DNA of 64,000 bases from Blasia pusilla. Taxonomy: Eukaryota. Below the pieces are notes generated by a model, which did not search any database, was not told the origin of the DNA, and saw only the letters and a program-made list of their open reading frames with translations. Shown here in pieces: positions 4,976-53,828 of the stretch. The DNA lies in the NCBI GenBank assembly GCA_050084515.1, contig CM114271.1, positions 6,014,001 through 6,078,000 on the forward strand. The letters are read 5' to 3'. Each line of letters starts with the position of its first letter. Position 1 is the first letter of the stretch. The position numbers and the translations under genes are program-made.

Positions 4976-4989
4976 TAGATCTCTCCATA

Positions 4990-7671: not shown

Positions 7672-7983
7672 TATAGAAAAGTGATAACGAAGTATAACTG
7701 GTGGGAAACGACTCTCACACTCACACATTTCCATGGAGAATGAAATTTTGCAATGAGAGAATGAGTGGAGGTTGGTCCCCTTCTCAATTATGTAGGGTAT
7801 GTACAAACAACCCTAACCCTAATCCTAACCATAGTCTTGAGTTAGACTAGTTGTGATTAACTAACCCTAGTTAAGATAATTGTGCTTAAGTGACTAATCA
7901 AGATTAAGCTTCTAACTTTGTATGAGTACCAAATCTAGCAATTTGGATGTCTGATGAGCTTGATTATAACTTAACCTTCAATA
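7672..7983 (-). repeat. Copia 3' LTR
   Basis: Direct repeat of 22155-22453; PPT AGGGGGAG (minus strand) at 7984-7991. Confidence 0.9.
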
Positions 7984-14450: not shown

Positions 14451-14717
14451 GCCGAGCAGAGACGGATGCAAGTGTCATCCATGTCGTCACGTCCACCAGT
14501 TGGAGCATTGCCTACAGGGTCTATACATGCATTGGCTGGGGGTGGGACGAGGAGATATAGGCACCCATGGACTTCCTGGGACGTCATTCGAGTAGAGAGT
14601 GTGAAGGCGGCCAAACTAGCACGTGTTCATTTTTTGGATGTAGAGCATGGTGTAGGAGGTAAGAGTGGAGTTGTTGTTGTGGAGGTGGCTAGGGTTGCTA
14701 CATAGCAACCAAAGCCA

Positions 14718-17660: not shown

Positions 17661-18892
17661 GTTCGTTGTATCAAGAACGTCATTTCTGCCAACTTTCCTG
17701 TTGAGGTCTTTCACACTCGGGTGACTTGTTGAGCAGGTCACCCGCCCCTGGTAACTTTTGTGCGCAGGTTACCATGAGGATAGCTATTTTTAGCTATTTT
17801 GGGAAGAGCGTTTTGGCTCTTCCCAACCTTATATAAGAGAGGAAGATGGCTTTCCCAAGCCATCTTTCTCATGTTGGGCTGGCCATTCTTACTCGTATGT
17901 GTGAGTTAGGACTAAGTGCTAGTGTTTGGATTCCTTGATAGCACAGGGTGGACGAGGCTTGATATGCCGATATAGATTGAGGAGTGGAGTTTTAGGCCGG
18001 GCTTCCATTTTTACTACTCTTTATTTTTTGTTTTGTGATCGTCATGTATATGTATAAGTTGATTTTTGTACATGTGTGGATCTATCCGTGTGTGGGAAAG
18101 ATCTGTGTTGTGTGGTATGGATATGCATAGCGATGTATGTTGTGTAGCGATGTGTATGCATACAAAAAATGCCATTTTGATGTAAGTAGTCATAAAACTC
18201 TGTTGAAAGGTACTCTCCTCCTCCATCACGACGCAATTTGAGAATGTGTTCTCCAATATGCTTCTCTATCATAATTCTAAATGTTTGAAATATTGAGAAT
18301 ACTTCTAACTTGGCTTTCAGAAAGTATATCCATATATACCTAGAGAAGTGATCAATGAATGAAACAAAGTAATGGCAACCACTAAGGCTATGTTGTGATG
18401 TTGCCCATACATCATTGTGAATCAACTCCAATATCTTGGATGCTCTTCTACCTTATTTTGGAAATGGAAATCTAGCTTGTTTTCCAAATTTGCAAGAAGG
18501 ACATACCTCTAACATAATAGGACTCGCTAATTTAGGAAGTCTTATTCCAAGATTAGAGGATAAAAGACTCTATAATCTTTCAAGATTCATATGCCCAATT
18601 CTCTTGTGCCACACATTTAGATTTGTGAGTTGTTGGCCAGTTTGATCATACATTGTTGTTTGAATCTCTTGCATAAAAACATATAATTTGAACCTTCTGC
18701 CAGATTTATTTCCTTTTCTTATCATAGTCTCATCATCCATTATTTCAATGAAACAACAATCTGTATTAAACTTCACTTGATAACCTTGTTCTACTATTTG
18801 TCTTACATAGATCAAATTTCTTGCAATGGTAGGAACATAAAGAACATTTCCAAGAGCACAAAGACCATCTAATGCTATTGGAACTTTACCGG

Positions 18893-22154: not shown

Positions 22155-22453
22155 TGTAGAAAACTGATAAAAAAACATAATTTATGGGAAATGACTCACA
22201 CTCACACACCACCATGGAAAATGAAATTTTGCAATGAGAGAATGAGTGGAGGTTCGTCCCCTTCTCAATTATATAGGGTATGTACAAGCAATTATAACCA
22301 TAGTCTTGAGTTAGACTAACTGTGATTAACTAACCCTAGTTAAGATAATTGAGCTTAGCTGACTAAACAAGATTAAGCTTCCCTACTTTGTATGAGTACG
22401 AAATGTAGAAGTTTGGATGTCCAATGAGCTTGAGTGTAACTTAGTTTTCAATA
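22155..22453 (-). repeat. Copia 5' LTR
   Basis: Direct repeat of 7672-7983, abutting the PBS. Confidence 0.9.
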
Positions 22454-31955: not shown

Positions 31956-34900
31956 AATGTCGAATTTTATAACGTTAAAGAATATTGCATATAGAAAAAC
32001 TTGAAGAGAAATACCTATTATTTTATTAATATAACTCTTCGGGATATACAACATTTCTAGTATAAACACCATCTTTGTTTGGTGGACTCTCATTGTCAAT
32101 CATCATATGGATTGACTTGGTAGAACCTACTCTAGATGAGGCAACATATAATTTTCTGTGAGAAAATACAGGATTTGGCAAGTGAATACCAACTCTATCT
32201 AACGTTTGACCTTGAGACTTATTAATTGTCATTGCAAAAACAAGACGAATATGAAATTGAAATCTTTGTAAATCAAAAGGTAATCCTGAATCAGATGCAA
32301 TCAACGGAATGCGTGGAATAAACACTCGAGCTCCAATACTTTTTCCCGTCATAATTACAGCATCTATAACATGTCGACCAAATCCAATAATCACCAAGCG
32401 AGTTCCGTTTGCTTGTCCCTTTGCTCCATTCATATTTCGTAATAGCATAATTGGAGCTCCCATTTTCAACGTTAGGCAATGTGGTGGAAGTCCTGATGGC
32501 AAACAAGTATTCAAGAATTATGTTAGGTATATAAACCTCACCCCGTCATCAATCACTGAATCATCACTTTAAAAATTGTGCACCAGAGAAGAGAAACAAT
32601 CATTAGCATCAAAACAATAATTTCTTATAGTACAAATTAATTATGTCTTCATTTCATATAAATTGAAGATATTCATGAAATATTCAAATTACCTCTCTTG
32701 GAAATTGCGACATAATTTCGGCATTGATCAAATCCACAGTAGTATTCTTTGTTGTAAGAATAGATGTACCCCTCAAGAAGTCAATATCACTCCACTTATC
32801 AATATCACGTTCATAGACAATTTCAATCAAATCATTAAGTCTGTGGCTCTTAATAATCATCGCATCAGGAATTCTTATAAAATCATCTCCAAACTCACAA
32901 TGCAATGGTATCCGATCCTCGCCAACCTTTAGTAACTAGTTTGCAAATCCATCTTGCTCATGTCGTGCTTCTCCTAAATAAAATTGACAAAAAAAAAGGA
33001 ATGAGTACATTTTCATAAAAAATCCATAAGATAGCAAAAGCAACAACAAAAGGTTCAATCTTGTTACCTTGCAAACAATTCACTCTCATGTTGGTAGTGA
33101 GTTTCATTATTCTCCCATGAGTCCAAATAAGAGATCTCTTAAGGGTTGCACGCACGCTGTGGTTGGTCGATCACCATGACGTACTACAAGAAAAAATTGT
33201 CGGAAGTCACCACCAAAAATAAATATATTGCCCCCAAAAGGCAGATCTCGTAGTTCAAGATCCACCAAACCCATGATATCTTGGAAGGTACGATTAACAG
33301 CCTCAAAAGCATAACGATGCGTCATAGGAGCTTCATCCCATACGATCATCTTTGCATTTTGCATACGACGTGCAATATCACTATTTACAGATAAGCTAGA
33401 AAATACACAAGAAATAAAAAAGTAAGAAATATTTATACGTAATATATAAGAATAATAAAAACATAATGGAAACCTGATTTTAGAACAATATTAGAGTAAT
33501 AAAAAAAATCTTAGACATAAACTTATTTGCAAGTAGACGATTCATGTATCTAAATAGGAATCTTAAATCGAGAATGAACAATACGGCCTCCATCGAGTAA
33601 CAAAGCAACAATACCAGAAGATGCAACTGCAGGAGTTATATAACCCTTGCTTCGTACGCTAACAAGAAGAAAATTGTATAGAAAGGTTTTTCTGTTCCAC
33701 CACGACCATCAATGAAGAATAACTTTGCCTAAAAAGATCCACATTAGCCACAATATATAGATATTAAAGAATTACAACTTAGAAATAAATCTTAAAATAG
33801 CTTTACATATATAAAATGCACTTACAGAAGATAGCGCATCATTTAACACATCCTCTATGAAAAGATGGACAACATCCCATATAGCTCGTTGTCCATCATT
33901 CAATGAAATCTCCCCTCGTTGAACAGGATCAGCAAGCATTTCACAATCATAGCACAACTCTTATTCCTCTAAGCGCGAGATCGATATAATCCGAGTAACA
34001 ACGTTAGGTTGAGGCATGTTGGGGAAATCTGCCATACTTTTACCATAATCTTGAAGATGGTAATGGATCTCTAATAATGCAACATTAATAGTATGTGGAT
34101 CCAAAGGAAGATTAGAAATTCCAATTCTTTGCATCAAACTATAAAAATATCTGAAACATCTGAAAGAAAAAACATAAAAATCAATACAAATTTGTAATAA
34201 AAAATAGAAAATTCAAGAATGCATAGAAGGCATGCATATTACCTCGCGCCTTTGATGTAAGAGATCTTCAGTTAGAGGAACTAAGAAGCGTTCCCATACC
34301 ATGCTAGGTATAGAGGGCGTGTTGTACAGAAGAATAATGGCAAAGAGCAAACGCAATGAATAACCAGTACGAATTTGTATTGCCTCTTCAAAGCATGAAA
34401 AAACCTCTCTGTTGTCTTCTAATAATCCCATTTGAATAGCCGTTTCCTTAAAAGTAGAATAAACAACACCATCAATCGTTCTTAAATCTTGATAATATTG
34501 AGCTTTTCTCACATGATGAAGAAGTAATCGTAGCCAATGACGCTCCTATTCACCTATATAAATTAACAATCAATTAAAATAATTAATGTAAACCCAAGAA
34601 AGAAGAGAATAATATTATATTAAGTTTAACATTAATTTTGTGAAAAAAAAATCTAGAGGAAAGTTCACGTGGGTTAGTCATATACAAACGTCTGATAGGA
34701 TGTCCACATCCTTTTCTTCCACATCGAACCCACGTCTTCTTTGTCGTGCGAATCCACATCGTCATACAACATACATCGCTGACATACCATACGCACATAC
34801 ATACATAACATAGACGAGAGTATCCACAAACGCAAGTGTACCACCACTGAAATCCGTGAAAGACCTACTGTCATAAAACACGTTTACAATCACATACAAT

Positions 34901-35499
34901 CGAGCCAAACCCACTCCACGATGGGAGAATCTAGGTCGAAGCTTGCGGGAAAACACCATAGCCAAGAGCTCTACTCACTACCAAGGCTAACTCCCAACGC
35001 AACAGGCTCAACTCAAAGAACTTACTGTTCTTTGAGGGCAAGCCACCTTATATCCTCCAACCTAAGAGCGGGCCCTACTGGGAAAGTCACCCCCAAGTGA
35101 GTAACCCCCAACCCTATGTATGGAACCGCATCTCTACCAAGCCACTACGGTCCTACATAAGGAATGGCCTCTACCAGCACACCATACTCTACGACATAAT
35201 CCGTATGGTCATGACAAGTGTCATGCGAATCCACATCGTCATACAACATACATCGCTGACATACCATACGCACATACATACATAACATAGACGAGAGTAT
35301 CCACAAACGCAAGGGTACCACAACTCGCCCTCCTAACTGGCGGTTAGGTCCCTCTAACTCCCAGGTAGCCCTATACATCTACTACATGCTATACACCTTC
35401 TTGGGTGCCCAAATCAGAAGGCCGGGTGCTAGGTTGCCCCATCGTTAGTCGTACATCTGTAATCCATATCATGCAAAGATCAAGTCATCTACCTCTCCT

Positions 35500-35640
35500 A
35501 AGTACATCGAGGACAAACCCACCTTCCAAAGAGGAACAACATCCAAACGTGAGTCAAACACATAATGTGCCAACCCCTAGAACACCGATCACACACCAAC
35601 ATACGGGCTGCGTTACCAACAGACCCACACAACATGCACC
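35500..35640 (-). pseudogene. PHD finger at the integrase C-terminus, element 2
   Basis: CMLC-x8-LVCDRCSRGWHIMCL-x9-GRWVCPRC fits the C4HC3 PHD with the conserved W before the last CxxC. Confidence 0.9.
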
Positions 35641-38570
35641 TCAAGCTAGCACGTATCATGGCTAAGCTTGGGTCAACAGTACCATCCACATTTGGAAGAT
35701 GACATGGCGCACAATTACGCACATGGTCCTTCCAAACAACTCCATCACGACCCTCCAACATGAGAACTCCATAAGCTAACACCTCACGCACTTTCGTAAA
35801 ATAGTGCGCCTGCCGTCACATCCAACGTTGTCGGGCAATCTGCTGCAAATAGACATAGTCCCCACATGGAACCTACGAATCGATGGTCGATAACCTCCAC
35901 CCGAATGGTTGCATGCCGCAACGTATCCCTGTGTTGAGCAATGGCAAGATTCTCAAAGGCATTTGTTGGCATAACTCTCGAAAGAGCTCCGCCGGCGAGA
36001 ACACACCCTCATCCACATCTCGGGGTCATCAAGGTTCACCACCTCACTAGACTCCCAACAATTGTTGGCAAGTCGGATCTCGGCCGTATAACTTGAGAGA
36101 ATAAGGTGAGAAGGAAGCCAAGGATGCTTGGCGATCGAACCCTATACCCCATGGCTAACCATGGCAACTGAATATCCGGTCTCCAAGATGCCCTTCAGAG
36201 GCCATACTTGCGCAATGCCCTCTTCACCGCCCTGAACCACATGCTCAGCCAAACCATCCGCCTCTGGATGATCTCGAGCGTGGTCCGATGATCAATCAAC
36301 GCCTTGTCACACAAGACGAAACTCACCCGAAACTCAGACCTGGTCGGGTCAAGACGCCAATTTGGTGCACAAAAATGACTAAGCACTCTATCCAGAAACG
36401 CATACGCCGTTCCCTCACTTGCCTTGTCCGGTAATGCCACCAACTCAATCCACTTGGAGAAGTGCTCCACCATCACCAACACATATCGATGATGTCGTAC
36501 AGTCAACGGTAACGGTCCCGCAAAGTCCACACTCCAACGGTAACCTAACCCCATAATAGGCAAGGGGTGTAATTGTGGTGTAGGGGCATTAAATGATGCC
36601 CTCACCCGGTCACAAACCATACAACGTGACACCAACTGCTGCACCTGAGTATGCATGCCACGCCACCAATACTGGCCAAGGAGTAAGCTATACGTACGCT
36701 TTACCCCAAAATGTCCCAACTCCTCATGGGCATGTCGCACAATGCGCTCTCTCTGAGCCAAATGTGGCACTACTCGTACTCTACCATCCTCCCATACGCG
36801 GAGAATATGTGTTCCCTCCAATCGATACCTCTTAGCACGTTGAAGAACACGGTCTCACTCCTTGGCACTCACTATGCCTGGCACCCTACTGGTCCGTAGG
36901 AACTCCAACACCAACGCATCATCATGAATATCACGCTGATCCGTACCACCATCTCCAACCTTAGGATCTCAAGGTGGCCATCTACCCCTCGACTAGAGTA
37001 AGATATCATGTGGTCCTCCATACTAGAGTCCACCCCTAACCAACATAAAAAGGCGGATGCATGCCAACCTGGCACCATCTCCTCATCAACCTCGCCATGC
37101 CATCTAGCCCCAGTTGTATCCTCTTGGCTAGTACATGGGTTCCTACTCAACCCATCAGCATCAAGGTTGGCAACTCCAGGTCTATGTACCACCCGGAAGT
37201 CATACTCTGTAAGATAAGAGCCCATCGTGCAAGCTTCCTGTAAGCTTGTCCGACTCTATCAACCACTTGAGCGGCTGGTGATCGTACCAAGGGTAAAGCG
37301 TGTGCCAAACAAGTAACACCTAAAGTGTGCCACACCCCCACACTCTTGCCAAGCACTCTCCCTCATATGAACTATAGCGCGACTCCATTTGCATTATTCG
37401 AACAACTTGCATAGGCCACCACAAACTCCATGTGCTCATCATCATGTTGTGTCAACACCGCTCCAAGTCCCAACCTACTCCAATCAGTGTGTAATTGAAA
37501 TGGGCGCCCTCTGATAGGTCTCCTCAAGATAGGCGCCGCCACCAACTGGGCCTTAAGCTCCACAAAAGCTCTCTCCTGATCATCTCCCGAGTGCCACTCT
37601 TGATCTGATTTCAGCAATTGGTTCAAAGGCTTTGCCATAGCACTATATCCCTTCACATACCTCCGATAGAAGTTCGCCAATCCCATAAATGCTCGAACTC
37701 TACTCACATCTATCGGACGCGGAATAAGTGCAATAGCCTCCACCTTTGCTTGCTGAACTCCCAAACCACCTGGATAGATCACATGACCCAAGTACTCAAC
37801 ATCCTCATGGAAGAACTTACACTTTCCTGGATGCAAACGTAGACCATGAGCTTTCAACCGCTCAAACACCATCTGCAAATGTATCTGATGCTCCTCCACC
37901 GTGTTACTGAACACCAAGATATCATCAATGTAACACCGAACAAAATCCAACCCTGCTAGGATCCTGTCCATCACTCTTTGAAACTCGGCATGTGCATCTT
38001 TCCACCCAAAGGGTAAGAATTTCCACTGGTACAAACAATCCTTACCATGAGAGTTGACACCCCAAAATGTTGTCTTGGCCTTGTCACTCTCCCGAATCGG
38101 CAATTGATGGTATCCTGCCCGAAGATCCAAAAATCGCAAATCTTTGCTGTCCCACCACATCAAAGATCTCTCGGTGTAGGCATGGCATACCTATCGGCCT
38201 TGGTTTGCCGATTGATAGACGGTAATCTCCACACATCCGCATATCCGTGTAGTTGCCATGCATATCCTTTTTAGCAGCATGACGCGCCGATGCATACTCT
38301 CCATGCGACAACTCCACTAATCCAGCCTCCAAAAGGTCCAACGTCCTACTCGAATCAAGTCCTCTCCATATCACTATATCGATAGGGACGACGGAAGATT
38401 GGCGTATCACTAGCCAAATCAATCCGTATACCGGGTCCAACTAGAGAACCCAACTCCTTCATGCTAAAGGCAAAACAACTCCTATAAGCACGTAGGAACT
38501 GTGTCAAGCGTCGTTTCTCACCTCTCGTAAGCTTGGGCCCAAGTAATGGCTCCCAAGTCTCCTCCTTTGG
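35640..38570 (-). pseudogene. Element 2 RT-RNaseH-integrase
   Basis: LDLRAGYHQ, LPFG, YIDD, HTDWS, H-EELG-H...CMVC zinc domain, DFAGP. Confidence 0.93.
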
Positions 38571-38849
38571 CACACTAGAGGGAGAGGCGATGCCATTGGT
38601 CGCTCATAACCCCCTCACAAGATGGTACACCCTTAGCTACACCATCATCTCGAGCAAATAACTCTCCACCAAAGATGAGCAACCAACTCCACATGCCCAG
38701 CCATTACATCCCATCTACTCCAAGGATGCAAAATACTACTCTCCTCGCCCCCATCCGATGCCTCTACCGTCCCGATAGCCATCGAGCTCATTACAAGGGG
38801 TGGAAGACCCACAGACATAGTCCGAAGTCGACGCTGCTCGGCCATACCA

Positions 38850-39795
38850 AGACTCAAAATCCAAGTCAAACAATTCAGGTCCATGGCCTGACCCAACACA
38901 TGACGTCGTGAAGCCTCAGAAATAGAAGCAACCGCTGTCACACCTGTAGCAAATCCCATCGCACGATCTCTCTCATCAGCGTTAGGCTCCACCAACTGTC
39001 GCACATGAGAATCCCATACAAGCCCTGGACCACCTTCCCTGTAGGCATGTGACGAGGGAAAACTCACAAATGTGGGTAGTGCCATCCTAGGCTGGCCCAC
39101 ACGGTTCACCACTGCCATGGGTGACCGATCAATAACCCTCCCCACTTGGGAAGTCGCCGAGTATCCAAGATACTATCCACTGTAAGGCGAGGATCCCACT
39201 GCACTGCATCATATGCTCGACGTAGAACCTCCCTAGGCAACAAGTTTGTCCACCACAAGCGTGGACGATGTGCACGCGAGCCAACTCGCGCTGCATCCAA
39301 CAACACCGCTGGTCCAATCCAAGAGCGCACCTCATGAACACTCGCCATCATTCGGGTCCGAGTGTCACCCAACAATGGAACATTCTCCAGAATGTAAGCT
39401 AGAGCATGTGCCTGATGAACCTGAAGATGTCGTAACACCCGTAACATCTCCCAAAACAATCGAGACCTAGGGTCATGTAATCCCTCACCACGACCAGCAC
39501 GTGTATGACCCTGACATGGCCATCCAGCAATCACCAAATCCACAGGACCTATTCTCTCAAGGTCCTGCGCCCCCAACAATGCAATGTGTGATGGTAAAGC
39601 ACGCTGGTACCCACGAATAGCGATGGCGCCAACAACTCAGATATCTCCGCATCAATCGACCAATATGTCGGGATGAGACTCTGGGCCGTCTCATCTTGCT
39701 CCACATACGTATCTCTCCGACAGAATACCGGCTGCAACATCATGACCAAACCAAAGTGCTAATCCCACCAAAGAGATCTAACACACAAATGCCCT
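38850..39795 (-). pseudogene. DNMT3-like C5 cytosine methyltransferase domain inside element 2 pol
   Basis: GICVLDLFGGIS (I), YVEQD (II), DLVIAGWPCQGHT (IV, catalytic PC intact), YILENV (VI), SRAHRPRLWWTNL (VIII), ERDRAMGF (IX), RRHVLGQAMDL (X). Confidence 0.93.
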
Positions 39796-40199
39796 CCGGC
39801 GGATATTGCCATACAATGGGTGTAGTATCCAAAGGGGATAACCAATCGGGCTAGAAGTAGGAGTCCGCCGTGGGGCCTCCTCTTCCTCGTGAGGTATAAT
39901 GACCTCACACCAAGCCTCTGCACTAGGCGTCGCCTCTGCCGTAGTGCACCACCCGAACTCCAAAGTGGCACATCCAACGATGAGGATGCCATTGCTGCAA
40001 AAATAGGGACCTCCTCTTCCTCCTCATGCGCAAGGAGAATCCATAGCGTAAAACATTACCCTCCAAAAAGTCTCTGGCCAAGTGACTACTCCACTAAAAC
40101 CAGACCACAGATGCTAACATCTTTGTTGGGAAGACCCTCCTGGTCGAGCCAGGAAATAAATCTCACAGAACTTGGCTCATACGTCCATCCCGGATCGCC

Positions 40200-42650
40200 A
40201 ACCTGGTCTATAAGACGCTGTCTTAGTCCAAGTAATCCTCGAAAACCCATCGGTACAATATTGCTCCTCCAACTAGTACATCATACGACTCGGTGATGTG
40301 ACTACCATGCAGATACTCCCAACCGGGAGCTATCGATCGCATGATCTGGTCTCAACTGCACACAAAAATTCTCCCGTGTCATGAATTGAGACCTATCATT
40401 GGCTCCTCCAAGTGATGTTTGAATCTGGAATGGGCAAGGCTCAAGCTCGACCTCCGAATACCCAAACCAATACATGCCGCCTTTCCCAACATCAAAGATT
40501 GGGCACCGAGTCTAACAAGACTCTATCTGGTTTTACACTGCCTGTAGGACTCACCAATCGAAAGATCCCACTCTGGTTGTCCAACATACATACACCAGGT
40601 GTAAGCCTCTCACGATCAATGGTCGGGCCGGGTGGTAATGCATCCATCTTCGCCATCGCCGCTCGCCAAGTAGCACCGGTACTCAATACTACTCGACATA
40701 GAGGGTCGCTCCACCGCAACACCCTCATCCACCTCAACACGTGTAGCAAGAATACCCCCACGTTCACACAACGTGGTCGCTAATCGAAATCAGGAGCTAA
40801 GTCAACTCCTAAAGCCATCACTCCGTGGCGAAAACAATGGGGATCCCAACACTGAAGTTGCCATCCGCACATCTTGCATTGATCTTTGCATCCGTGTCTA
40901 CTACACGCCATGTAGATGCCTCGGTCCCCAATGTCGGCTCAATAGGTCTGCGAGGAACCATGGATGGAGTCCTAAGCACCTCGCAGACAACAAGAATGAC
41001 TGGGGAAGCCTAGCTCGCCTCCCGGCCTCACCCCTCTGTGGGTCCAACTCCACAAGAGCACCACGTGGCTCGACGCTTTCGAGTGGCTCCTCTCAGAATC
41101 GCGGTGATGCCTCAACCTTTGTCTTTGACTCGCCATATAAGAGAGATCATCCCCTCCATAAGAGGTGAGGAAGCCCCTACTCCCAAACCTGATCTATGTT
41201 GGATACCACCATAGTAGCCAACTCTCGCTCCAATCTGCTCAATCTGGCGACCATAGGCGACTCTGTCGTAGTGGTAGGGGTAGCCACCGTAGGCTCTCCA
41301 ACCACTAGTCCACCTCTACCACCCCTACCACCTCTACCACCTCGGCCTCTCGGAGCTACTCCACCACGGCCACGGCCTGATCTCAACTCTGGATGAAGAT
41401 CAAAGCAACGCTCGAGGATGACCTAGTCTCCCAATGATCACACACCGAGTTGGGGCCGATCGAGGCCCATCCTCCAAAGTCCGTCTCCCATCCTTTTGGG
41501 GACAAAACTTCCTAACATGATCACCTCCACATGTCCAACATGACTATCCTTTCTTGGGGCAGCAAATGAAGGCAATGGTCTCTGCACAAATGTCCCTCTA
41601 GGACTTGATCGAGGTCGCGTGTACCCCACGACTCCCACTACTACTACCACCACCACTACTACGAGACTGTGAGGCGGGCGGTGAACACGTGAAGTAGTAG
41701 TTGTATCCCCTCTTGAATGCGGATGTCACCACTCTCTCCTTCACCATGTTAAGCTCAATCTTCTCGAGATAGAGCAAACACATGGGTCAATGTGGGTGAA
41801 TCATCACTCATAAGAGTAGCATCACGCACCCTACGGGCGCAAATCTCTGCCCAAGATCCCATACCAAAATGGATCCGCCTGATCCTCAATCACACCTGGG
41901 TAATCGAAATCAAGCGTCGATACGCGTGTATGCCTCACTTAAGACTCTCACCGGGTCTTTCGCTCAAAGTCCTCAAGATTCCTCAACTTCTCCGTCTTCA
42001 CTCCTTGATAGTTCTTCTTCAACCTCTTGAAGAACTCGCAGAAGGCTAACGATGGTGGGGCACTAGTACCTCCACTAGTACCCCCACTAGTACCTCCACC
42101 GGTACCCCCACTCCGGCTCAGACTCGTAACACTAACGTCGGCCGGGTTGGTGGCATAGCAGAGCACTACTACCAATACCACCATGGGTGATAGACACATA
42201 GCCGGAGACCAATATTGTCTCCATGCCTCAATCTCAAGCAACATGGTCCTTCCTAAACTCATGGTAATCATCCACGGGTGGTCCTTCCAAGTCTTTGAAA
42301 CAACCCCTTCCAAGCCAAGAAGGGTGTAAACAACGTGGCATTCCGCAACATCTGCATATCACACCACGTATCAAACTCCTGCATGAAGTCCTCCAACTCA
42401 ATGGTACCCTTTGCACCGAGTATCGTCGTGGGCCCTTCATGGCCCCATATCCACCGTCCATGTCCCAAACCAATGGAGCTGCAATACTCGATAACAACGT
42501 AGAAGACTCGGTGTTTGGAACACCCTCGTCCTCCTCTTCATCAACCGTCAGAAGTGGAAAAGGTAGCCGATACCTAAATCCACTCCGTGTGAAACCACCA
42601 CTGTCCGCACCACGGTCCCCAACCAGACCACCCGTCAGCTCCGTGATGAC
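40200..42650 (-). pseudogene. Element 2 gag and aspartic protease
   Basis: IELEDFMQEFDTWCD gag motif shared with element 3, RGG-rich tail, protease RVLLDS. Confidence 0.8.
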
Positions 42651-45131
42651 CAACGCCGATGCCGCACCACCACCAAATTACCAAGTGACGTCGATGTCGC
42701 TATACTATTCTAGCTCTACTAGCTATGGGTGTAGGCAACCTAACTTGTCATCACCACAAGAAGTCTCCCACAATCTATTCGTCATCCCTCCAGCCTCACT
42801 ACCGGTAGCACACAAGAGTAACACTACTCTGGAAATCAGCGTCAACCCTAACAATGGGCGCGCAAGCAAGAAGCACGATGGAGGGGATCCAAACACAGGA
42901 AATCCAACGACAACCCTCCAATCGCAAATGGAAATCAAGGTTACACAATCCACCAAACGTGGTGCCCTCTGAATCCACAAAACCCACCACACAATTCTAA
43001 CGCAATAGCTGCTCCGCCGCGGGTCGATGACGTGCTAGTCGAACGCGCAGCACCTGAAAATATCACCTGCATGGAGAGGCTACACCGTACTATGCCCTAG
43101 AGTTACATCAACCAAAAACCTAAGATGCATAAAGCGCCTAACATATCTCCGAACAGCACCAAATGAGCTACCACAGTCTTCACACTGGCAGTTAAGAACT
43201 CGGCAGTTAAGCGTCCTCCAGGCAGAATAGCCCAAAGATGGGTGACCAGTTATGCAAAACTCAAATCCCGAAGTCTGAAAAAATTGCCTCACGCCCAAGC
43301 AAGCAAGCTTGCTTGCTTGCTCCTTGCTCCTTACTCCGCCTCTCACGCCCACTCGCCCCGAGCTACCACGAGTTGCCTCGAAGCCTCAAAACGCCGAGAA
43401 ATGCTCGAAACATGCCCCTATCGCCCCGTTGGCCATGCTTCGCTATGGAGAGAGGTCCAACCAGGGTGCCCCCAATGGGATAGGCGTCTCCAAAAATGAA
43501 CGAGTCACCAACCAACCAGCCCCTCCGATCCGCTGTCCACCATAGCCAGACCTTGAGCTAGTCCGCAAAATTTCGATCAGAAATTACTTCACAAATACGT
43601 GACCAAAATCAAATCTGTTTAGATCAGAATTCAATTGACCACCATAGCTATCTCCCCACAAAAACTCAGCTACAACCGAGCTCCGTACTCCGAGCTAAAA
43701 ATCAGACAAACTTGCTGTCCATACACCTCCGCAGTACCAAATCCGGCCGCTTCCGCCAAGTTTCATGCACGCAGAAATCCGCAACGCTCCACACACTCGA
43801 GCAAATAAATTCACAGGAGATCACAATACGAGTAGCAACAGGAACCTCTCACCTGATCTGGATGAACTTCAACACAGCTTCCGCACTCCAAGCTCTCCAC
43901 ATCAGAAAACCGTCGAACACGAACCAGAATCTTCAATCCTTGATAACTTCCAACTCCCTTGACGAAATCCGGCGATCTAAAGCGCGTTGGAAAGCTCTCA
44001 GCAAGGCGCTTCTTTCCCATCTGACTGCGCACCAGATTCACACCTCCAACATAGGCCACAAGCCACGAACATCCACGGCTGAGTACACAATCAGCCCTAA
44101 CCAGATCCTACTGATCTACAATCGAAGCTACCATCGATCTACTCCAGTTCTTTGAGTGAAATCCGTGAAAGACCTACTGTCATAAAACACATTTACAATC
44201 ACATACAATCGAGCAAAACCCACTCCACGATGGGAGAATCTAGGTCGAAGCTTGCAGGAAAACACCATAGCCAAGAGCTCTACTCACTACCAAGGCTAAC
44301 TCCCAACGCAATAGGCTCAACTCAAAGAACTGACTGTTCTTTGAGGGCAAGCCACCTTATATCCTCCAACCTAAGAGCGGGCCCTACTGGGAAAGTCACC
44401 CCCAAGTGAGTAACCCCCAACCCTATGTATGGAACCGCATCTCTACCAAGCCACTACGGTCCTACATAAGGAATGGCCTCTACCAACACACCATACTCTA
44501 CGACATAATCCGTATGGTCATGGCATCTTATTCCAAGAGTAATGGGAAGGAAAATCCAAATAAAGGAATTGTCAAACCGTAGGATCAGATATATTTGTAG
44601 CAAAGCATTGAGTGAGAGTCATCTCCTTACTCCGTTCTAGAATATTATCCAAAGAGTTACGATCATGAAAATATACCATCTGACTATCAGGGAGATGTAC
44701 AATCAATCGTACAATACTTGGTTGCTCACCATGTAAAATAAACTTGAAGATTCTCCAACAAGCTTTTGAAGCAGAAACATACTTGAAAAGACAAAAAAGT
44801 AAATATAGTTAGAGTCCAACCTTTCAATATTCTAATCTAATTTCAAAATAACATAAAAAAATAGAAAGTCATGTACCTCGCATCAAGATATAAGGATGTC
44901 TCATCAATAATATCTTTTGTAATTGTGCTTCTTGCTAATGTATACAATATGGCATATGATTCCTTATATACAAACTTATAGAAGTACTTCACAGCCAATA
45001 TGCGATTCATAATCTCCAAATTGATATGACAATCAAATAAGGTACATAACATCGGATTATGTAAAACCACCCAATGATTGTCAAAGTCATGATTCGACTT
45101 ATGAATACACCTACCATTAACACGTCTACAT

Positions 45132-48100
45132 TGTTACCTCTTTTATGATAGATCGGTGAGATCTAGTAGAGTACCTTGGCGGAATAGTAGAGGACAGACT
45201 CAAGAGGTTGAGGATGACCTACAGAGACCCCAGGAAACCTGAGAGAACACGTTCTCCCTTTGATTCGTCTCATTTGGAGCCATAACAATTTATTATTTTA
45301 GGTAAGTACCATGTTGAATATATTATCAATTTTCTATTTTTGGTTAGTGGCCCTTGACCTCCTACATCAAATCAAGAATGTAGGAGGTCAAGGGCCAAAG
45401 AGGTGACTTGGGAGCATAGGTTACCATGGAGAGAGTTTGAGAGAGGGGAGGGGTATACCTCAAAGAGAGAGAGCTTGAGAGCTTATTTTCTCTTTGTTGA
45501 ACCTCTTGGCACAAGGCAGAGAAGTTATGGTCCCTTGCCTTGTGAATGTAACCCAAGCCTCTCATTAGGAGAGTGGGTTTAGTTTGACATTGAGAGGGAC
45601 ATGTGAGAGTGCACACATTTGAGAGTTATAGTATTGAGAGAGATTGGATCGTGATTTACAAAGAGAGAATGAGATGAGTGAGAGAGCTTTATGGAGGAGC
45701 TCGCTGGTTTTGCAGGTTGGGAATCATATTCCCCGTTTAGAGGTTCATGAGAGTGCTCATCGGAGCCGAAGCCACTCATTTTTTATGTTTCCTTTGCCAA
45801 TTTTTTGTGTGAAAGAGTGGCGCGCGGAAGCGCTACCCAATTTTTATAGGGATTGAGTATGGGAGGAAATTTCCCCATGTTGATGCTCTCAAGAGTACCA
45901 TGTAGCTTGTTAATTTGTGTTTTCACAAGTTTTATACTTTTTTTGGGAAAAATCAGTGCGAAAGCGCTGCCAAATTTTGTGTCAACAAAATTTGGCAGAA
46001 AGAGACCTTGAGCTTTACAACAATCCCTGTCAGTTTTTACTAGAATGTCCAATTCAAAATATTTTTTGACGCCGTCGTAGATCGTGAAGCTGTACACGCT
46101 ACACAATAGACAATGCATGGTTTTGAGTTGCAGGCAAAAGTTATGGTCAATCTTGCAATTTTGCCATTGCTATGGGATTTTTAGGGTAAAATTGTTCAAA
46201 CCCTAAACTGACGGCCGCCGCCGCGGCGGCCGTCAACGGTCCACTGTCCACCGTTGGCCACCGCCACCGCCTAGCGCTGCTCAGAGCCACGTTTGGCCAT
46301 TGTCCATCCTTGGTTGCCATTGCCGCCATTACGAAGTGGAGGGTCTTCCACGACGACCGTTGATTCTGACTTACATCGCCACCAAATACTTTGTTTTGGC
46401 CGCTACCGTCATCGCAATTTCGTCATCAATCAGTGATTGCAGGGGACCTCTGGTTATGGTGTTCGAGTTTTTATTTCATTCTGCTATGTTGTGATTGGTA
46501 GCCGCTCGAGGAAGATCGAGTATCGTGTCGTGACTCCCGTAGCCATAACGCGCCGCCATTTTCCGCGACGTGCCGCTCGTGGCCGCATCGCACCGTCTCG
46601 ATCACGGAGCCGCTCCTTCACTAAGGACCAGACCATGTGTATTTTTTATTGAGGAGATTATGCCGTGGAGTGCCGCATCCCATTATCGAATGTCGTGTCA
46701 TTATGTAGCCGTTCCGCACCGCGAGTGCCGTACTATACCGCTGGATCCGCACGGCATATTGAGGAGGTTTAAGCAACGTGAGTACAAAAAGAGTACGACT
46801 TGCTGATTGGAGGAGTTGTCTTCACGACCAAGTTGGGATTGAGATTTGCAGTTTCTGAGGAGCGACATCAACATTATTATCAGGTTACCCATTGTGGTCT
46901 CTTATCGTGCATGTGTGAGGGAATTCCGGGTATTTGCAAGTTATTTGGGATATTGGGAAATTATTTGGGATATTGGATTTTATGCTTATGCTGAAAGTAT
47001 TGATGACGTATGGGTTGAGGGGACATAGACCTGTGTGGAATGTCTAGAGTTGAGGATCAGTTGATTTGCCGCACAACACATATCTCGGTGAGAGAATGTA
47101 GCTTGAGTGCCACATATTAGATTGAGTGATTGCGTGATTATTCACGAGGTTGAGAGTGATCGTGTGAGGGAGGCACAAGGATCATCACGACGTCCTTTCG
47201 GGACTATGAGAGGCAAGGTTGTGGACCGGAGAGTAGCTCTAGAGGATTTATGCAGAGTGGCGCGAGGTTTCGAGGATCTCCATGTGCGGGACCACCTCGA
47301 CCTCCTTCTATGTCATCTTCAGATGAGGAGGAGGGCGTAGAGGAGTTCAATATTGCTATGCCACTCACATTGAATAGTCCTACTGCTTGGGCGTACAAGA
47401 TGGATGACCGGGGTAGAGGACCGTGTAGGTTCTCAAGTGCAGTAGGCGTGATAGAGTTGCACGACTTCATCGCGGAGTTTAGGAGTTGGTGCGACTCACA
47501 GCGGGCTAGGAAGTCTAGAGAGTTGAACTCGTTTACAGCATGGAATGGTATATTCCAGCATTTAGATGGGGCATCCATGGAAGATTACCATGAGTTCTCC
47601 CACAAATATGCCCAAGAGATTGAGGCATGGCGACTCTACTATGATCCACACTATATGTCATGGACGGAGCCGTTCCAAGATGAGGAGGAGGATTCAGGAG
47701 AGCCTACTTCCTCGTCCACCAGTGATGTTTTAAGAGGGGTATCTCGCACTAGAGCAGTTGCACCATTCTGTCGGGTTTGCTCCAGGTTCAACCCCCTGGT
47801 TGAGTTCTTCGCTGAGTTGAGGGCGAGCTACCAAGGGTACGTAGAGAGAAGTTGCGGAGCATCCACGACTTCCAAGGGCGCCCAAGTGAGAGTTTGCGTG
47901 AGGCTTACACTCGCTTGCACTGGTTGATCAATGTCATTCAGGGGATAATAGAGGCTCAGGCTATCCACTCATAGTACGCGATGCTGAACTCGACCCTGCG
48001 GATACGTGTACGGGAGGGGGCACTTCTTATGAACACCTCACCTATGTTGAGAGATGTTTTTAGGACCGTTGAGAACATTGAGCGCATCATGGCGGAGGAA

Positions 48101-51100
48101 AGCGTATCCACCATGGGTTCTGGGCGAGAGCAATCACGATTGCCTACACCACCAGTGCAACCACGTGGACTCCGAGATAGGTTGACTATGGCACCATGAG
48201 CTCAGGGAGGATACCGGGAGGCCATGCCATAGAGATATGCGCCTTCATATACAGCTCAGTAGCAGCAGCCGCCTACGATTACTTGTTGGTCATGTGGTGG
48301 AGCCCATCATCAACATGATTGTACTCATCAAAATCATGGACGTGTGCCTCAGCATGGAGGAGGAGATGGTGTTGCACCATGAGGTTATCAGTGTGACTAT
48401 TGTCAGAGGTTTGATCACACACACGCCTGGTGTTTCAATTTACACCCTTAGTTAGGTCCGGGCCGAGGGCCAGAGAGGGCACCAGAGCAAGTAGCCGGTC
48501 TAGGTGGGCCTAGAGATCGTGCACCACGTGGTCCCTTTAGGGGACGAGGACCAGAAGTTTCCCGACAGGGTGGTGGAGTTCCCCGTGGAGGAGGTAGAGT
48601 CCCACCACCTAGACGCGTCGAGGGAGACGTCGGGCGTACAGCTGGGATGGCTGCTCAGATACAACAACTATAGGAGAAGATGTTAAGGAAACATAGTAAG
48701 GCCTTCTCTTTTACTACATAAGAAATTGGTTGTGTAGACACGAGGGTGGTGGCACCGATGGTAATTTTCACAATTCCACATATGCCTTGGGCTTTGAAAT
48801 CCATACCAGTACCACGAGCTATGATTCCCAAGTTGATTGAGTTATTGAAGGAGAAGATGCAGATGGATATCTTAAAGCCATCTATGGGGCCTTACTCGAG
48901 TCGATAGTTCACTATGCCAAAGAAGTCAGAAGCTCTCCGATTCATTCAAGATATGCAACCGACAAATAAGATAACTATTCAAAATATGGGAGCGGGGCCC
49001 ATGCTATCTATTCAATAGGAGATTTGCACTCGAGATATGATCATAGCTATGGAGGGTAGAGATATTACCACTATGGGCACTCCACTTGGGCTTGTAAGAA
49101 TTTGCACATTACCTAAAGGAGCAACAGATTCTGTTGCTCACATGCAGCGTGCAATGAATAAGATCTTGAGAGAATTCATTCTTGAGAAAACCATTCCTTT
49201 TGTAGATGATATTCCTATAAGGGATGTGCAATAGAAGATAGAATTGAGAGGGTTGTGAAAGATGGGTGTAGAAAGTTTGTGTCTGATCATATTTATGATG
49301 TGGATATTGATCCTAACAAGACTAGAAGAGGTCAATCTTACTCTTTCTAGAGAAAAGTGTAGCTTTGGGGTTCCTCAAATTGTGGTAGTGGCTTATCTTT
49401 GTGGAGAATTTGGCCGAAAACCAAATCCAGCAAAAGTTGATGTCATCGGGAGGATACGAGAATGCGAAAACGTCACCGAAGTGAGAAGGTTTTAAGAGCT
49501 TGTGTGTTTTATCAACTATGAATTCCTCATTTTGGCCACATATCTGATCCTTTGTATGAACTCTTGAGAAAGAAGAAGAAGTTCACTTGGGAGAAGAAGC
49601 AAAGAGCAGCATTGATGTAGTTGAAGGAGGCATTGAAGTCGCCACCGAATCTATGACAAATGAGCTACGAATACGGAAGACCTATTATCATCACAATAGA
49701 CACTAGCCCTATTGCCATTGGTTGGGCAGTTGGGCAGGATGACGTGGAAGGAAGAAGATTTGCGATAAGGTTTGGAGCTCGTACATTCACGGAACGACAA
49801 AGGAGGTACCCTTAGGTAAAGAGGGAGCTTTGGGGAGTTATGACTGTGATGAAAGTTGAAAAAGATTATCTTATGGGAGCGTATGTGTTGCTTGAGGTTG
49901 ATTGTCTACCTCTGTTAGGAATGATTGCAAATTATACAACTCCAAATATAGCCATGTTACGTTGGATAGCCTACATTAGATCCTTGAATCCACAACTGAG
50001 GCATATAGCTGGAAAAGAGAACTCAGTAGCTGACATGCTGTCTAGAGCTAGATTTAGTCAAGAAGAAGATATGGAGGTAGCTGAGATAGATGAGGATGAT
50101 GCATATGTATGGCAAGTGTCATCACGAGAAGAAGGTGGCATAGAGGATGTTTTAGCCTTCAAAGAGAATTTGTATAAGGGCAAGCATACGAAGTCCAATA
50201 GGTATGTCGTGCCCATCCCTAAGGAGATCTTTGATGCTATATGCAAAGATCTTCAAGCCGGATACCATCAACTTCCTATTAGATTGGAGGACATGCAGAA
50301 GACGGCATTTTTGGGCATCGATCCTCACGGGAAGGATTTTTTGTACTAGTGGCGGTTCTTACCATTTGGGTTAAAGAATGCCCCGGTTGAGTTTCAGAGG
50401 GTTATGGATAGGATCTTGGCACGTCTGGATTTTGCTAGGTGTTATATTGATGACATCGTAGTCTTTAGCATCACGGTTGAGGAGCATGAGCGACATCTAG
50501 AGGAGGTTTCAACGATTGCTATTACATGGGCTGAAGCTACATCCAAGCAAGTGCAAGTTCTTCTACGACCAAATTGAGTACTTGGGTCATACGATATACC
50601 CAGGGGGGCTTGGTATGTAGCAGACAAAGGTAGAGGCTTTTTCACGCATTCCACGCCCTAGACATGAAATTCATGGGATTGGCGAACTTCTATCGACGGT
50701 ACGTCAAGGGTTTCTATTTGATTGCGAAACTCCCAACCTTGGTGACCAAGGTGGATCAAGAGTGGCACCGAGGGGATGAGTAGGAGAAAGCATTTAAGCT
50801 GCTCAAGGACATATTGACGTCCGTGCCCATATTGAGGAGATCGATCAAGGAGGTGTCCTTTCCAGTTGCATACCAATTGGAGCATGTTGGGGCTTGGAGT
50901 TGTGCTCACCGAACATGACGATGATGGTAGAGAGTTCGTAGTGGCATACACTAGTCGCTCGAATACCATTGCAGAGGCATAGTATAGCTTGTATGAGGGT
51001 GAATGCTTGGCTGCAGTGTGGACTGTCGCACATTTCAGGTGTTATCTATTTGACAACCCCTTTACCATCATTACTGATCATCAACCACTTAAGTGGTTGA

Positions 51101-53828
51101 TGGAGTCCGACAAGCTTGTAGGGAAGCTTGCGAGGTGGGCTCTTTTGTTGCAGGAGTATGACTTCCAAATGGTGCATAGACCTGGGATGCTCAACCAAGA
51201 TGCATATGGTTTCAGCCGTAATCCATACCCGAGTAAGCTAGATGCGACTAGAGCTTTTGCCATGGTGAGAGTGATCAAGAGTTGGTGCCAGGATGGCATA
51301 CGTCAGCCTATTTGGGCTGGTTGGCTATGGAGAGCGAGATTTTTGAGACTTCAATGGCGAGGTCTGATGGAGAGTCGTTAGATCCAAAGGCCGATGAGGA
51401 AACGACATGTGGCCGAGATATTCATGACGATGGAGTGGTCTTGGAGTACCCGCGTACTGGTAGCGTCATGAGCATAGTGGGTGCTAGAGAGCAGGATCGG
51501 ATCCTATAGCGAGCCAGACGGTTCCAATGGGAGGGGGCATATGTATTGCAAGCGTGGGAGGATGGTAGAGTGTGTGTAGTGCCTCATCCTTTGCTGAGAG
51601 CACGTTTGGTGTGTCGTGCCCACAAGGAGTTGGGTCATTTTGGAGTAAAGCGGACGTACAGCTTGCTTGAGTTTCAGTAATGGTGGTGAGGCATGCAGAC
51701 TGACGTTCAGCAGTTTGTTGCCAGATGCATGGTGTGTGATTGAGTCTGAGCATCATTCAATGCTCTGACTCCACATGTGCATCCACTTCCGATCATGGAT
51801 TTAGGTTATAGATGGATTTTGGATTTTGCAGGACCTTTCCCTTTGATAGAGCGCCATAGTCGTTATGTGTTGATGATAGTCCAGCACTTCTCGAAGTGGA
51901 TGGAGTTGGTTGTATTGCCTGAAAAAGTGAGTGAGGGAGTAGCAAATGCCTTCTTTGATTGAGTGTTGAGTCATTGTGGCGTACCAGCTGAGGTGTTGAC
52001 AAACCAAGATATACAATTTCGCGGGGAATTTCAGACCTTGTGTGATCAGGCATTGATCGACCATCGCACCACTTTGCGAGATCATCTTGAGGAGGATGGA
52101 CTAGCAAAGAGGGTTGTGCAGACGATGAAGAGAGGATTACGTAAGTATGGCTTGCAGAAAGGTCACTTAGGAGATTGGGACCTTTAGTTGCTGTGGTTAG
52201 CGATGGGATACAAATTCAACAGGCATGCATCCTTAGCTTCTTTCTCACCGTACTTGCTCCTTTATGGCCGTGAGCCTGATTTTCCTGTGGCCATTTGTCA
52301 AGATGTTAGTGAGGTGTTGAACCTTGATGATCTTGATGTATGGATGAGAGCATCTTCTAAGAGGGTTGACTTGTTCCAAAGAGTGAGGCCCATGGCATTT
52401 GAGAACTTGGCTATTGTGTACTATTTGGATACATTGAAGTATGCGACTATTCGGGGGATGGTTATCGACCTACTATCCGAAGATTTCATCAGGGAGACTA
52501 TGTCTACTTGTAGCAGATGGCACCCATAATGTTGGATGTGACTGCAAGGCGCACCATCTTGAGAGTACGGTAAGGGTTTTCCATCGGGTGTTCTCTTATT
52601 GGAGGGACGTGATGGTATGGTTTGGAAGGACCATGTGCATAACTATGGCCGTGTCACCTTCCAAACATTGACGATATAGTTGATTCGAGATTAGTAGTAG
52701 TTCTTGCAGGCTTGCGATGTATGTTGTGTGGTTATGCCCGTGGTATAGCCACTATAGTAGTCTTTGATGGATATTCGAGAGGATGGCATATGGCATGCTT
52801 GACACCACCTCTCACTAGGGTTCCTCAGGGACAATGGATGTGTCCCAAATATACATAGAGTAGGTAGTTCTACATTCTGACTTGTGTCTGTGACATGGAT
52901 GACAAGAAGGTGACTAACGATGGGGACACATGAGCACCCGACCTTCTTGCTCTTAGCGTCTGAGAGATGTATGTCATGCATGGTAGGTAGGGATAGATGG
53001 TTATCTAGAGTTAGAGGGACCTAACCACCAACTAGGGGGGGATTGGAGATATTTTGGTACTTCTTGTCTCCTTGTTTGGATGCCATGAGTTAGCGTGGGA
53101 TCGTGCGTGTTAGTGTGTGTGTTCGGTGATAACGATGTATGTTGTGTAACGATATATATACGCACGACAGTTGTCACGTCTTTTAGGATAGATCGTGAGA
53201 TCTAGTAGAGCGCCTTTGCGAGTAGTGGAGGACAGACTTAAGAGGTTGAGGATGACCTACTGAGGCCCCGAAAACCTGAGAGAACAAGTTTCCCCTTTGT
53301 TTCCGCTCATTTGGAACCATATTGAGGAACTTACTATTTTAGGTAAGTACCATTTTGAGTATATGGTCTTTTTTTTTTTTTTTGGTAAGTGGCCCTTGAT
53401 CTCCTACATCAGATCAAGAACGTAGGAGGTCAAGGGCCAAGGAGGTGACTTGGGAGCATAGATTACCATGAAGAGAGTTTGGGAGAGGGGAGGGGTATAC
53501 CTCAAGGAGAGAAAGCTTGAGAGCTCATTCTCTCTTTATTGAACCTCTTGGCACGAGACGGCGGAGCTATGGTCCCTTGCCTTGTGAGTGCAACCCAAGC
53601 CTCTCATTAGGAGAGTGAGTTTGGTTTGACATTGAGAGAGACATGTGAGAATGCACACATTTGAGAACTATGGTGTTGAAAGAGATTGGGTTGTGATTTA
53701 ATTGGAAATATTTTGGTTCTTCTTATGTCCTTGTTTGGATGCTATGAGTTAGCATGGGATTGTACGTGTTGGTGTGTGTGTTCGGTGACAACGATGTATG
53801 TTGTGTAGCGATGTGTATGTGCACAAAA
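45132..53828 (+). mobile_element. Element 3: same lineage, split repeats A1 45132-45660, B1 53042-53169, A2 53172-53700, B2 53701-53828; chimeric interior lacking PR and DNMT
   Basis: TSD acat/atat. Gag ~47310-48680, foreign RT-RH 48680-50180, own RT-RH-IN 50180-52700, decayed PHD 52718-52856, G-run PPT 53034-53041. Confidence 0.92.
48680..50180 (+). pseudogene. RT-RNaseH fragment from a different Ty3/Gypsy lineage, inside element 3
   Basis: PMVIFTIPHMPW, LRFIQDMQP, LPKGATDS, FVDD, DTSPIAIGW, HIAGKENSVADMLSR; clearly unlike the adjacent YIDD RT. Confidence 0.85.

Follow-up and report, generated by a model that had tools for sequence, protein, structure and literature searches.

Split terminal repeats in methyltransferase-bearing Gypsy elements of Blasia pusilla suggest cleavage by integrase within the repeat of a DNA copy with joined ends

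We analyze a 64,000-nucleotide stretch of Blasia pusilla DNA (GCA_050084515.1, contig CM114271.1, positions 6,014,001 to 6,078,000 of the forward strand; hereafter "the window") that carries three Ty3/Gypsy retrotransposons, and focus on the second of them (element 2, window 34742-44525, minus strand), in which the terminal repeats are split into two parts, A and B. Textbook retrotransposons with long terminal repeats (LTRs), like retroviruses, integrate a linear cDNA through its ends, and two-LTR circles are generally regarded as dead ends; HIV-1 integrase reportedly cleaves the palindromic LTR-LTR junction of such circles. Elements of the DIRS, Ngaro and PAT groups use a tyrosine recombinase and insert without a target duplication; the integrated form of Ngaro and PAT elements is a permutation of a circle carrying the repeats twice, and DIRS elements often encode a methyltransferase. 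Tf1 and Sushi/Tcn1 elements have ordinary equal LTRs. The window elements join a DDE integrase to split repeats, and their anatomy suggests that the integrase cleaves a DNA copy with joined ends at a site within its repeat.

The closest described system is KnitGypsy-Dnmt3 of Klebsormidium nitens, to which one sentence in the legend of Fig. 4c of de Mendoza et al. (2018, PMC5890265) ascribes the repeat structure of DIRS elements together with Gypsy domains. Like the window elements, it has a Gypsy pol, a C5 cytosine DNA methyltransferase (DNMT) within the polyprotein and the layout A-coding-B-A-B. Two differences stand out: the nearest named proteins of the window elements are liverwort ones, and the main text of that paper, supplements aside, gives no duplications, junction sequences or priming site. 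The same main text proposes no mechanism and does not contain the word "circular". The initial annotation of the window knew of no description of the mechanism for plant Gypsy elements; the layout itself has been in print since 2018. A 2026 preprint (doi 10.64898/2026.05.21.726589) mentions streptophyte Gypsy-DNMT3 elements only in passing in the portion available to us. The literature searched, with supplements and Repbase outside its reach, holds no report of the duplications, palindrome, exact joint, self-priming site or strict polarity described below. All three window elements fall into a lineage of streptophyte Ty3/Gypsy elements whose pol is ordered (protease)-DNMT-reverse transcriptase-RNase H-DDE integrase-PHD and which is known as KnitGypsy-Dnmt3 in Klebsormidium. 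Element 2 is a new member of this Gypsy-DNMT3 group; as far as the literature searched goes, the polarity and the dissection of the junctions appear to be new.

Several more distant systems share particular features with the locus. Ngaro/PAT-like DIRS elements have split direct repeats in the same order, A1-B1A2-B2, according to the legends of PMC5890265, and a fixed polarity; the window elements differ from them in having a DDE integrase, a polypurine tract (PPT), a primer-binding site and 4-bp target duplications. A priming site complementary to the presumed start of the element's own transcript, and not to a tRNA, would be a likeness to Tf1 and Sushi/Tcn1 elements; among plant Gypsy elements, self-priming has been described for the Tcn1 clade (Neumann et al. 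2019, PMC6317226). The window elements, however, carry a PHD finger in place of the chromodomain, and the likeness drawn here is one of features. In foamy virus, two-LTR circles are cut by integrase at their palindromic LTR-LTR junction (PMC1180852). In retroviruses as in the window elements, the palindrome consists of two abutted element ends, and in retroviruses the DDE integrase cuts it to give integration-competent ends. The retroviral palindrome arises by ligation of cDNA ends, and re-opening it restores a normal provirus, whereas in the window elements the palindrome is encoded inside each repeat and the ligation joint lies elsewhere, so that the provirus is permuted. Gypsy-7a_cRei of Chlamydomonas, a green-lineage Gypsy element whose pol includes a PHD finger, is active in laboratory strains, and its LTRs are noted to have "subparts", the left one being without the last 8 bp of the right one (PMC9940879); it differs in its reported LTRs of ~2 kb, no B-A-B layout is stated in the part of that paper available to us, and we treat it as a lead only.

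Element 2, in its own orientation, reads A1-internal-PPT-B1-A2-B2, and both the coordinates and the repeat identities bear out the order that had been proposed from the bare sequence, with the proposed sizes of A (369 bp) and B (106 bp) correct within 1 bp. Apart from the palindrome and the flanking duplications, the following features are assigned to the minus strand. The 5' terminal repeat A1 (44157-44525) starts TGCCATG and is followed by a primer-binding site (44145-44157), with no B after it. At the other end, a PPT (AGGAGGGCGA in element orientation, 35326-35335, with a conserved block upstream) directly precedes B1 (35219-35325). A2 (34849-35216) starts TGTCATG and contains a TATA-like box and R-U5, with the presumed transcription start at 35011-35023. 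B2 (34742-34848) ends in ...CGCACGACA, the 3' terminus of the element. The palindromic B1/A2 junction, CATGACA-nn-TGTCATG, occupies 35210-35225 (plus-strand spacer AG, 35217-35218), and the joint at which A2 ends and B2 starts falls between 34849 and 34848 (within 34845-34852), as defined by comparison with the A1/priming-site and PPT/B1 junctions. A1 and A2 are 98% identical over 366 bp, and B1 and B2 are 97% identical over 107 bp. Direct reading of the flanks finds TCTT on the B2 side (34738-34741) and on the A1 side (44526-44529), a perfect 4-bp duplication.

The coding region of element 2 follows the Ty3/Gypsy order of reverse transcriptase, RNase H and integrase. From upstream to downstream on the minus strand, we find a DNMT upstream of the reverse transcriptase (38813-39690, by tblastn to DNMT-bearing relatives; Pfam PF00145, E 3e-10, at 39106-39636), reverse transcriptase and RNase H in several frames (37037-38440, by Pfam and tblastn; PF00078, E 2.1e-26, and PF17919, E 7.1e-15, both within 37372-38190), an integrase in a broken reading frame (36195-36854, by Pfam and tblastn to intact relatives) with an H2C2 zinc finger (PF17921, E 8.3e-17) and a partial rve core (PF00665, E 8e-06, under the curated cut-off), and a PHD finger at the C-terminal end of pol (35504-35638; PF00628, E 1.3e-06, 28.8 bits against a cut-off of 24). 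For comparison across the lineage, metagenome contigs were scanned with an alignment of 15 relatives, which gave 80 loci (designated L below). The pol order is the same in the relatives and in the intact loci L001, L022 and L014, the rve core is complete in L001 (E 9.8e-14), and long relatives have the full Pfam order DNMT-reverse transcriptase-RNase H-integrase-PHD. As in element 2, the DNMT of L001 lies inside the Gypsy polyprotein, where it shares an open reading frame (ORF) with a weak Asp_protease_2 match (E 2e-4, 22.4 bits, under the cut-off of 24.3). Pfam returned no Gag family match, and the 5' ORFs of element 2 have no Pfam match of any kind. L001 is nearly intact, with one in-frame stop (5083-5085) between the ORF that holds the weak protease and the DNMT (976-5082) and the ORF that holds reverse transcriptase, RNase H, integrase and PHD (5086-8226); the stop could be a site of programmed readthrough or a single mutation.

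Among the 120 homologues listed, many combine rve with a PHD finger and some carry a DNMT. The nearest named proteins in this list are from Marchantia polymorpha (84%, reverse transcriptase plus DNMT) and Calypogeia fissa (74-79%); proteins of Klebsormidium nitens are 51-52% identical to the element 2 reverse transcriptase, and Closterium proteins are listed as well. A Pfam search for a tyrosine recombinase (Phage_integrase) gave no match in 17 element 2 ORFs from both strands, none in the intact loci L001, L022 and L014 or in the relatives P0056, P0115, P0043, P0010 and P0021, and PF00589 is absent from the precomputed Pfam lists of the 120 homologues. The profile searches of element 2 and its relatives thus agree with the initial annotation, which by eye had seen an integrase and no tyrosine recombinase.

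The junctions of the repeats tell more about how the layout is made. A purine or G run adjoins B1 in every family, element 3 and the metagenome families included, in line with the PPT noted ahead of B1 in the initial annotation. Directly after A1, 10-17 nt are complementary to a site in A in 11 of 18 elements, a length that 0/300 shuffles reach, and the target site lies 20-35 nt past a TATA-like box. In element 2 this self-priming site is 13 nt long and can pair with 44320-44332 in A1 and with 35011-35023 in A2; its target is ~30 nt past the TATA-like box, and 13 nt were likewise reached in 0/300 shuffles. The primer-binding site would then pair with the presumed 5' end of the element's own RNA, as in Tf1. 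With the PPT before B1 and the priming site after A1, reverse transcription should give [B-A]-internal-[B-A], and the positions of the two sites support the product that had been deduced for the window elements. The full [BA] unit made in this way is present once per element, as B1-A2. Element 2 and its relatives have the priming site after the 5' repeat, the PPT before the 3' repeat and the short duplication expected of Ty3/Gypsy elements; the two equal terminal repeats are missing, the ends being A (5') and B (3').

At the A2/B2 joint, the U5 end is fused exactly to the U3 start, so that the base just ahead of the priming site meets the base that follows the PPT, in all four elements for which the three junctions are readable (elements 2 and 3, L031 and L071). 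A search for end-joining scars had been recommended; these four show none, and in one family two of six joints (L017, L023) contain additional bases identical to the end of the PPT, one of them together with a ~17-nt filler. Extra bases of the PPT-end type occur at retroviral circle junctions. The B1/A2 palindrome, CAYGACA-nn-TGTCAYG, is found once per element, at the B/A boundary, in 22 loci and in elements 2 and 3, with three stray matches against ~3 expected by chance in a rough calculation; its two halves are the inverted termini of the element. The spacer is GC in 13 loci and AC, GT or AT, all transitions from GC, elsewhere, with CT in element 2. In reads of the element 2 family (run X15), 35217 changes from A to G in 283/369 and 247/310 and 35218 from G to C in 271/367 and 219/307; the majority spacer is therefore GC and the palindrome of this family is perfect.

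Around the A start and the B end, we find perfect 4-bp target duplications in 7 of the 13 elements examined (TCTT, ATTA, TACA, TACA, TGTT, AAGG and TGCA in element 2, L012, L013, L016, L031, L044 and L073), and a further three have one mismatch. A placement of the duplications other than at A1 and B2 had been named as a ground for rejecting the proposal, and that is not what the flanks contain; nor do these insertions resemble those of DIRS-type elements, for which no target duplication is expected.

The layout extends beyond the window. B-A-B directly follows pol at 19 of the 80 metagenome loci, which are 16 distinct insertions as judged by flank (L072 has a shortened A, and L079 no detectable B1), and L031 and L071 are complete A1-internal-B1-A2-B2 elements. 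In L022, a GC-rich distant relative, the A copies are ~790 bp long and 80% identical, the palindrome stands at the start of A2, and there is no recognizable B2. The contig ends of L014 are identical over 123 bp (1-123 and 9049-9171), which suggests a circular assembly path through a repeat.

Raw whole-genome sequencing reads from two runs of the same species label (X15, X16), mapped to window 34600-35500, allow the junctions to be counted in the host. Depth is ~8-11 in the single-copy flank, 1200-2100 in A, 800-1070 in each B and 1200-1400 in the internal 3' end, which corresponds to about 100 copies, in order of magnitude, in the genome. At the junctions it is ~1020 for PPT/B, ~808 for the A2/B2 joint, where no insertion or deletion reaches 10% of reads, and ~680-740 for the B1/A2 palindrome. 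At the end of A, 717 (X15) and 674 (X16) loose ends enter the post-A1 consensus with an agreement of 0.93, and a depth of ~808 enters B, so that continuation into the priming site and continuation into B stand at roughly 1:1; given this agreement, reads that pass from the A end into random flank are at most a minority. At the end of B (34741/34742), 709 (X15) and 731 (X16) loose ends enter unrelated sequence (agreement 0.32-0.35). No loose ends at a flank/B-start boundary rose above the display threshold, which puts them below ~186 reads. Together with the agreement at the A end, this means that ordinary [BA]...[BA] termini are rare or absent, and the possibility that most copies have ordinary equal LTRs, which would have spoken against the proposal, is not borne out. 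The read ratios suggest that most copies in the host have the B-A-B loop. Reads of at most 170 nt cannot span both sides of the 107-bp B, and A-B-A-internal-B and A-internal-B would look like the standard form in these counts; the Logan contigs of X1 and X2, at 77-170 nt, are too short to bridge any repeat.

The origin of B2 can be judged from its divergence. Fixed differences between B1 and B2 are found in 0/117 and 0/155 alignment columns in two families, between-element identity is equal for B1-B1, B2-B2 and B1-B2 comparisons, and the divergence of B1 from B2 follows that of A1 from A2 in elements 2 and 3, L031 and L071. As far as alignments of integrated copies can tell, B2 is re-made at each transposition and is not inherited. 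These three observations exclude an independent insertion of B2. The view that the elements are of ordinary LTR type, with a B2 that was inserted independently, duplicated locally or misassembled, is also contradicted by the occurrence of the same layout in three diverged window elements, in 16 metagenome insertions and in ~100 copies in raw reads, and by duplications that flank the A1 start and the B2 end, and we rejected this account as next to impossible. The same B1/B2 comparison argues against a DIRS-like inheritance of B2 through RNA. In such a Ngaro/PAT-like cycle, the RNA would run from A1 to B2, B1/A2 would be a mere bridging template for the ends, and A2/B2 would pass on via the RNA. 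The repeat layout does match what the legends of PMC5890265 give for DIRS-type elements, and the polarity is fixed as it is there, but no tyrosine recombinase turned up in element 2 ORFs, relatives or the 120 listed homologues, 4-bp duplications exist, and the priming site adjoins A1 and the PPT adjoins B1, with the consequence that the minus strand would never copy B2; since B2 also shows neither fixed differences from B1 nor positional likeness, we consider a cycle of this kind highly improbable.

The best explanation, to which we give an even chance, is that integrase uses the LTR-internal palindrome, that the cDNA ends are joined, and that opening at the left palindrome yields A-internal-B-A-B. 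Transcription would start in A, ~30 nt past the TATA-like box; the RNA 5' end would fold onto the site right after A1 and prime the minus strand, as in Tf1; and the PPT before B1 would prime the plus strand, to give [B-A]-internal-[B-A] cDNA. Integrase would ignore the cDNA ends and use the palindrome CAYGACA-GC-TGTCAYG at the B/A boundary inside the repeat. The U5 end and the U3 start would be joined before integration, in a two-LTR circle, or after it, by repair, which would create the A2/B2 joint, and the DNA, opened at the palindrome of the left repeat, would be inserted with a 4-bp duplication as A-internal-B-A-B. B2 and the 5' part of A1 would be made anew in every cycle. With the integrase sites inside the repeat and the true cDNA ends joined within the element, the inserted form is not one that end-insertion of linear cDNA can make. 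We infer the order of the steps, the circle and the reason for the use of the left palindrome. A bolder version holds that end-joined cDNA is obligatory for integration and is opened by the DDE integrase at an LTR-encoded palindrome, which would make this the first such lineage and its provirus a fixed circular permutation; we offer it tentatively and would sooner doubt it than adopt it.

The polarity of the layout is strict. A B-A-B loop is present at 16 of 30 distinct 3' ends and an A-B-A loop at 0 of 13 distinct 5' ends (Fisher p = 6e-4), and all three window elements have the same polarity. Only distinct insertions entered this comparison, and 5' ends were counted only with at least 600 bp of sequence upstream; the count omits L004, L010, L024, L045, L055 and L063, in which B is too close to the contig end, L040 (a truncated A, then B), L015 (<600 bp upstream of A1) and L075, where B is followed by an inverted A fragment (1627-1928). 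As a circle has two identical B/A sites and only one permutation is seen, an asymmetric step is required. This is where the mechanism proposed in the initial annotation, a two-LTR circle opened at one B/A boundary, needs amending: the joint, the ends at the B/A boundary and the 4-bp duplications agree with it, but it also predicts the second permutation, which is missing from all 13 5' ends. If host end-joining closed the circle and integrase opened either B/A boundary without bias before insertion of the linear product, the junction anatomy would be the same as under our best explanation, and the cleavage of palindromic circle junctions by foamy-virus integrase (PMC1180852) is a precedent; yet the two B/A sites are identical over hundreds of bases, so that both permutations are expected, and only A-internal-B-A-B is seen, in the window as in the 3' and 5' end counts. 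We regard unbiased opening as unlikely.

What makes the step polar may lie in the DNA ends or in reverse transcription. In each of the six families measured, B, at 100-179 bp, falls short of the length of A, at 282-537 bp. One possibility is that the palindrome nearest a DNA end is preferred, in which case the distal ends might be joined after integration; another hypothesis is a one-sided template jump by reverse transcriptase. In its full form, the latter has the plus strand of the right end jump to the left cDNA end and copy B and beyond, after which integrase uses the outermost A start and B end. Such a route is inherently one-sided, which would explain the single polarity, and it yields an exact U5/U3 joint. 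The PPT-derived extra bases and the ~17-nt filler in L017 and L023, however, look more like the joining of finished ends, and integrase would have to act far from the DNA ends on both sides; we think a template jump quite unlikely. Routes by reverse transcription alone, considered in theory (a pause at the palindrome, a nick in the strong-stop duplex or read-through RNA), give A-internal-B-A or A-internal-B and never a terminal B2, and were discarded.

Several points weigh against joined ends opened at the left palindrome. All of the evidence comes from integrated copies, and neither a circle nor any other extrachromosomal form has been observed; where transcription starts, where poly(A) is added and whether the PPT is used are themselves predictions from sequence. 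A symmetric circle predicts A-B-A-internal-B as often as the form that is seen, and the model needs an asymmetric step that it leaves unexplained. Loose ends at the flank/A-start boundary number 365 and 376 in the two runs against a depth of ~680-740 over the B/A joint, where 1:1 would be expected if copies were complete. Finally, A..B-A-B is not universal among the contigs: besides the 16 distinct 3' ends with the loop, 14 distinct contigs read A-internal-B and then flank, and five of these (L012, L013, L016, L044 and L073) have perfect 4-bp duplications without an A2-B2. Such contigs may reflect the collapse of the B-A-B loop in short-read assembly. Alternatively, they may be genuine insertions that lack A2-B2, in which case a linear cDNA would probably have been cut at its two palindromes.

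The lineage, which spreads from Klebsormidium-like algae to liverworts, makes it possible to test in a tractable plant group whether cDNA with joined ends can truly serve as a substrate for integration. The question of how the DIRS and Ngaro repeat layouts originated is touched as well: under the bolder version above, the lineage would provide a living model, with shared topology and a methyltransferase, for how split-repeat, recombinase-using DIRS elements arose from Gypsy-like ancestors. A practical consequence is that LTR-finding software that expects two equal repeats will mis-annotate such elements, of which read depth indicates ~100 genome copies here.

The other two elements of the window lie on the plus strand. 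By repeat comparison, element 3 (45132-53828) has the layout A1-internal-PPT-B1-A2-B2 with A1 at 45132-45658 (527 bp), a PPT G-run at 53035-53041 in the same position as the PPT of element 2, B1 at 53042-53169 (128 bp), the spacer GT at the palindrome position (53170-53171), A2 at 53172-53700 (529 bp) and B2 at 53701-53828. This matches the layout reported for it, with A of 529 bp and B of 128 bp; the two A copies measure 527 and 529 bp. The A copies are 87% and the B copies 90% identical, and the duplication is ACAT against ATAT, with one mismatch. By tblastn, a DNMT was found in elements 1 and 2 and none in element 3. A second, weak reverse transcriptase-like stretch (49091-50145, 24-28% identity) stands just upstream of the main one in element 3.

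Element 1 (10389-18164, by repeat comparison and tblastn) consists of A1 (~10389-10771), a 14-nt self-priming site identified by complementarity (from 10771), a DNMT (13447-14471), pol, A2 (from ~17655, at a deletion junction with pol) and B2 (~18030-18164). The pol frame continues directly into A2, which shows that the PHD region, the PPT, B1 and the first bases of A2 were lost by deletion. Apart from this deletion the layout is intact, and a terminal B that is absent after A1 had been recognized correctly. The accompanying claim of 4-bp duplications for all three elements is borne out in part: that of element 2 is perfect and that of element 3 has one mismatch, but that of element 1 is not confirmed (GCAA against AAAA at the best end assignment).

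Elements 1, 2 and 3 have in common a 24-nt motif in the 3' part of B. The motif search gives five matches in the window (18131-18154, 34755-34778, 35232-35255, 53133-53156 and 53792-53815) against 0.01 expected. The motif lies 15-50 nt inside the terminus and is almost invariant across three families whose A repeats no longer align. A 15-mer of the B motif recurs where the PHD coding region of element 3 begins; elements 2 and 1 have no match of this kind, and we took it as chance.

The three elements stand out from their surroundings in composition, with ~50% G+C against 35-43% in the flanks and a G-over-C skew of ~0.2-0.27 on the coding strand of each (10000-18000, 36000-44000 and 46000-54000). 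An isolated 140-bp fragment at 5228-5364 is 79-83% identical to the R/U5 part of element 3 A, the presumed start site included, with no B adjoining. A 310-bp direct repeat (7674-7983 and 22157-22453, 84% identical, 14.5 kb apart) brackets element 1 and could represent the LTRs of an older element into which element 1 inserted. A fragment of a Pif1-type helicase (PF21530, E 4.2e-12; 3900-4472, minus strand) falls within a repeat of 410 bp, whose other copy, at 32126-32533, is 74% identical; this repeat pair probably represents Helitron remnants in a transposon-rich window.

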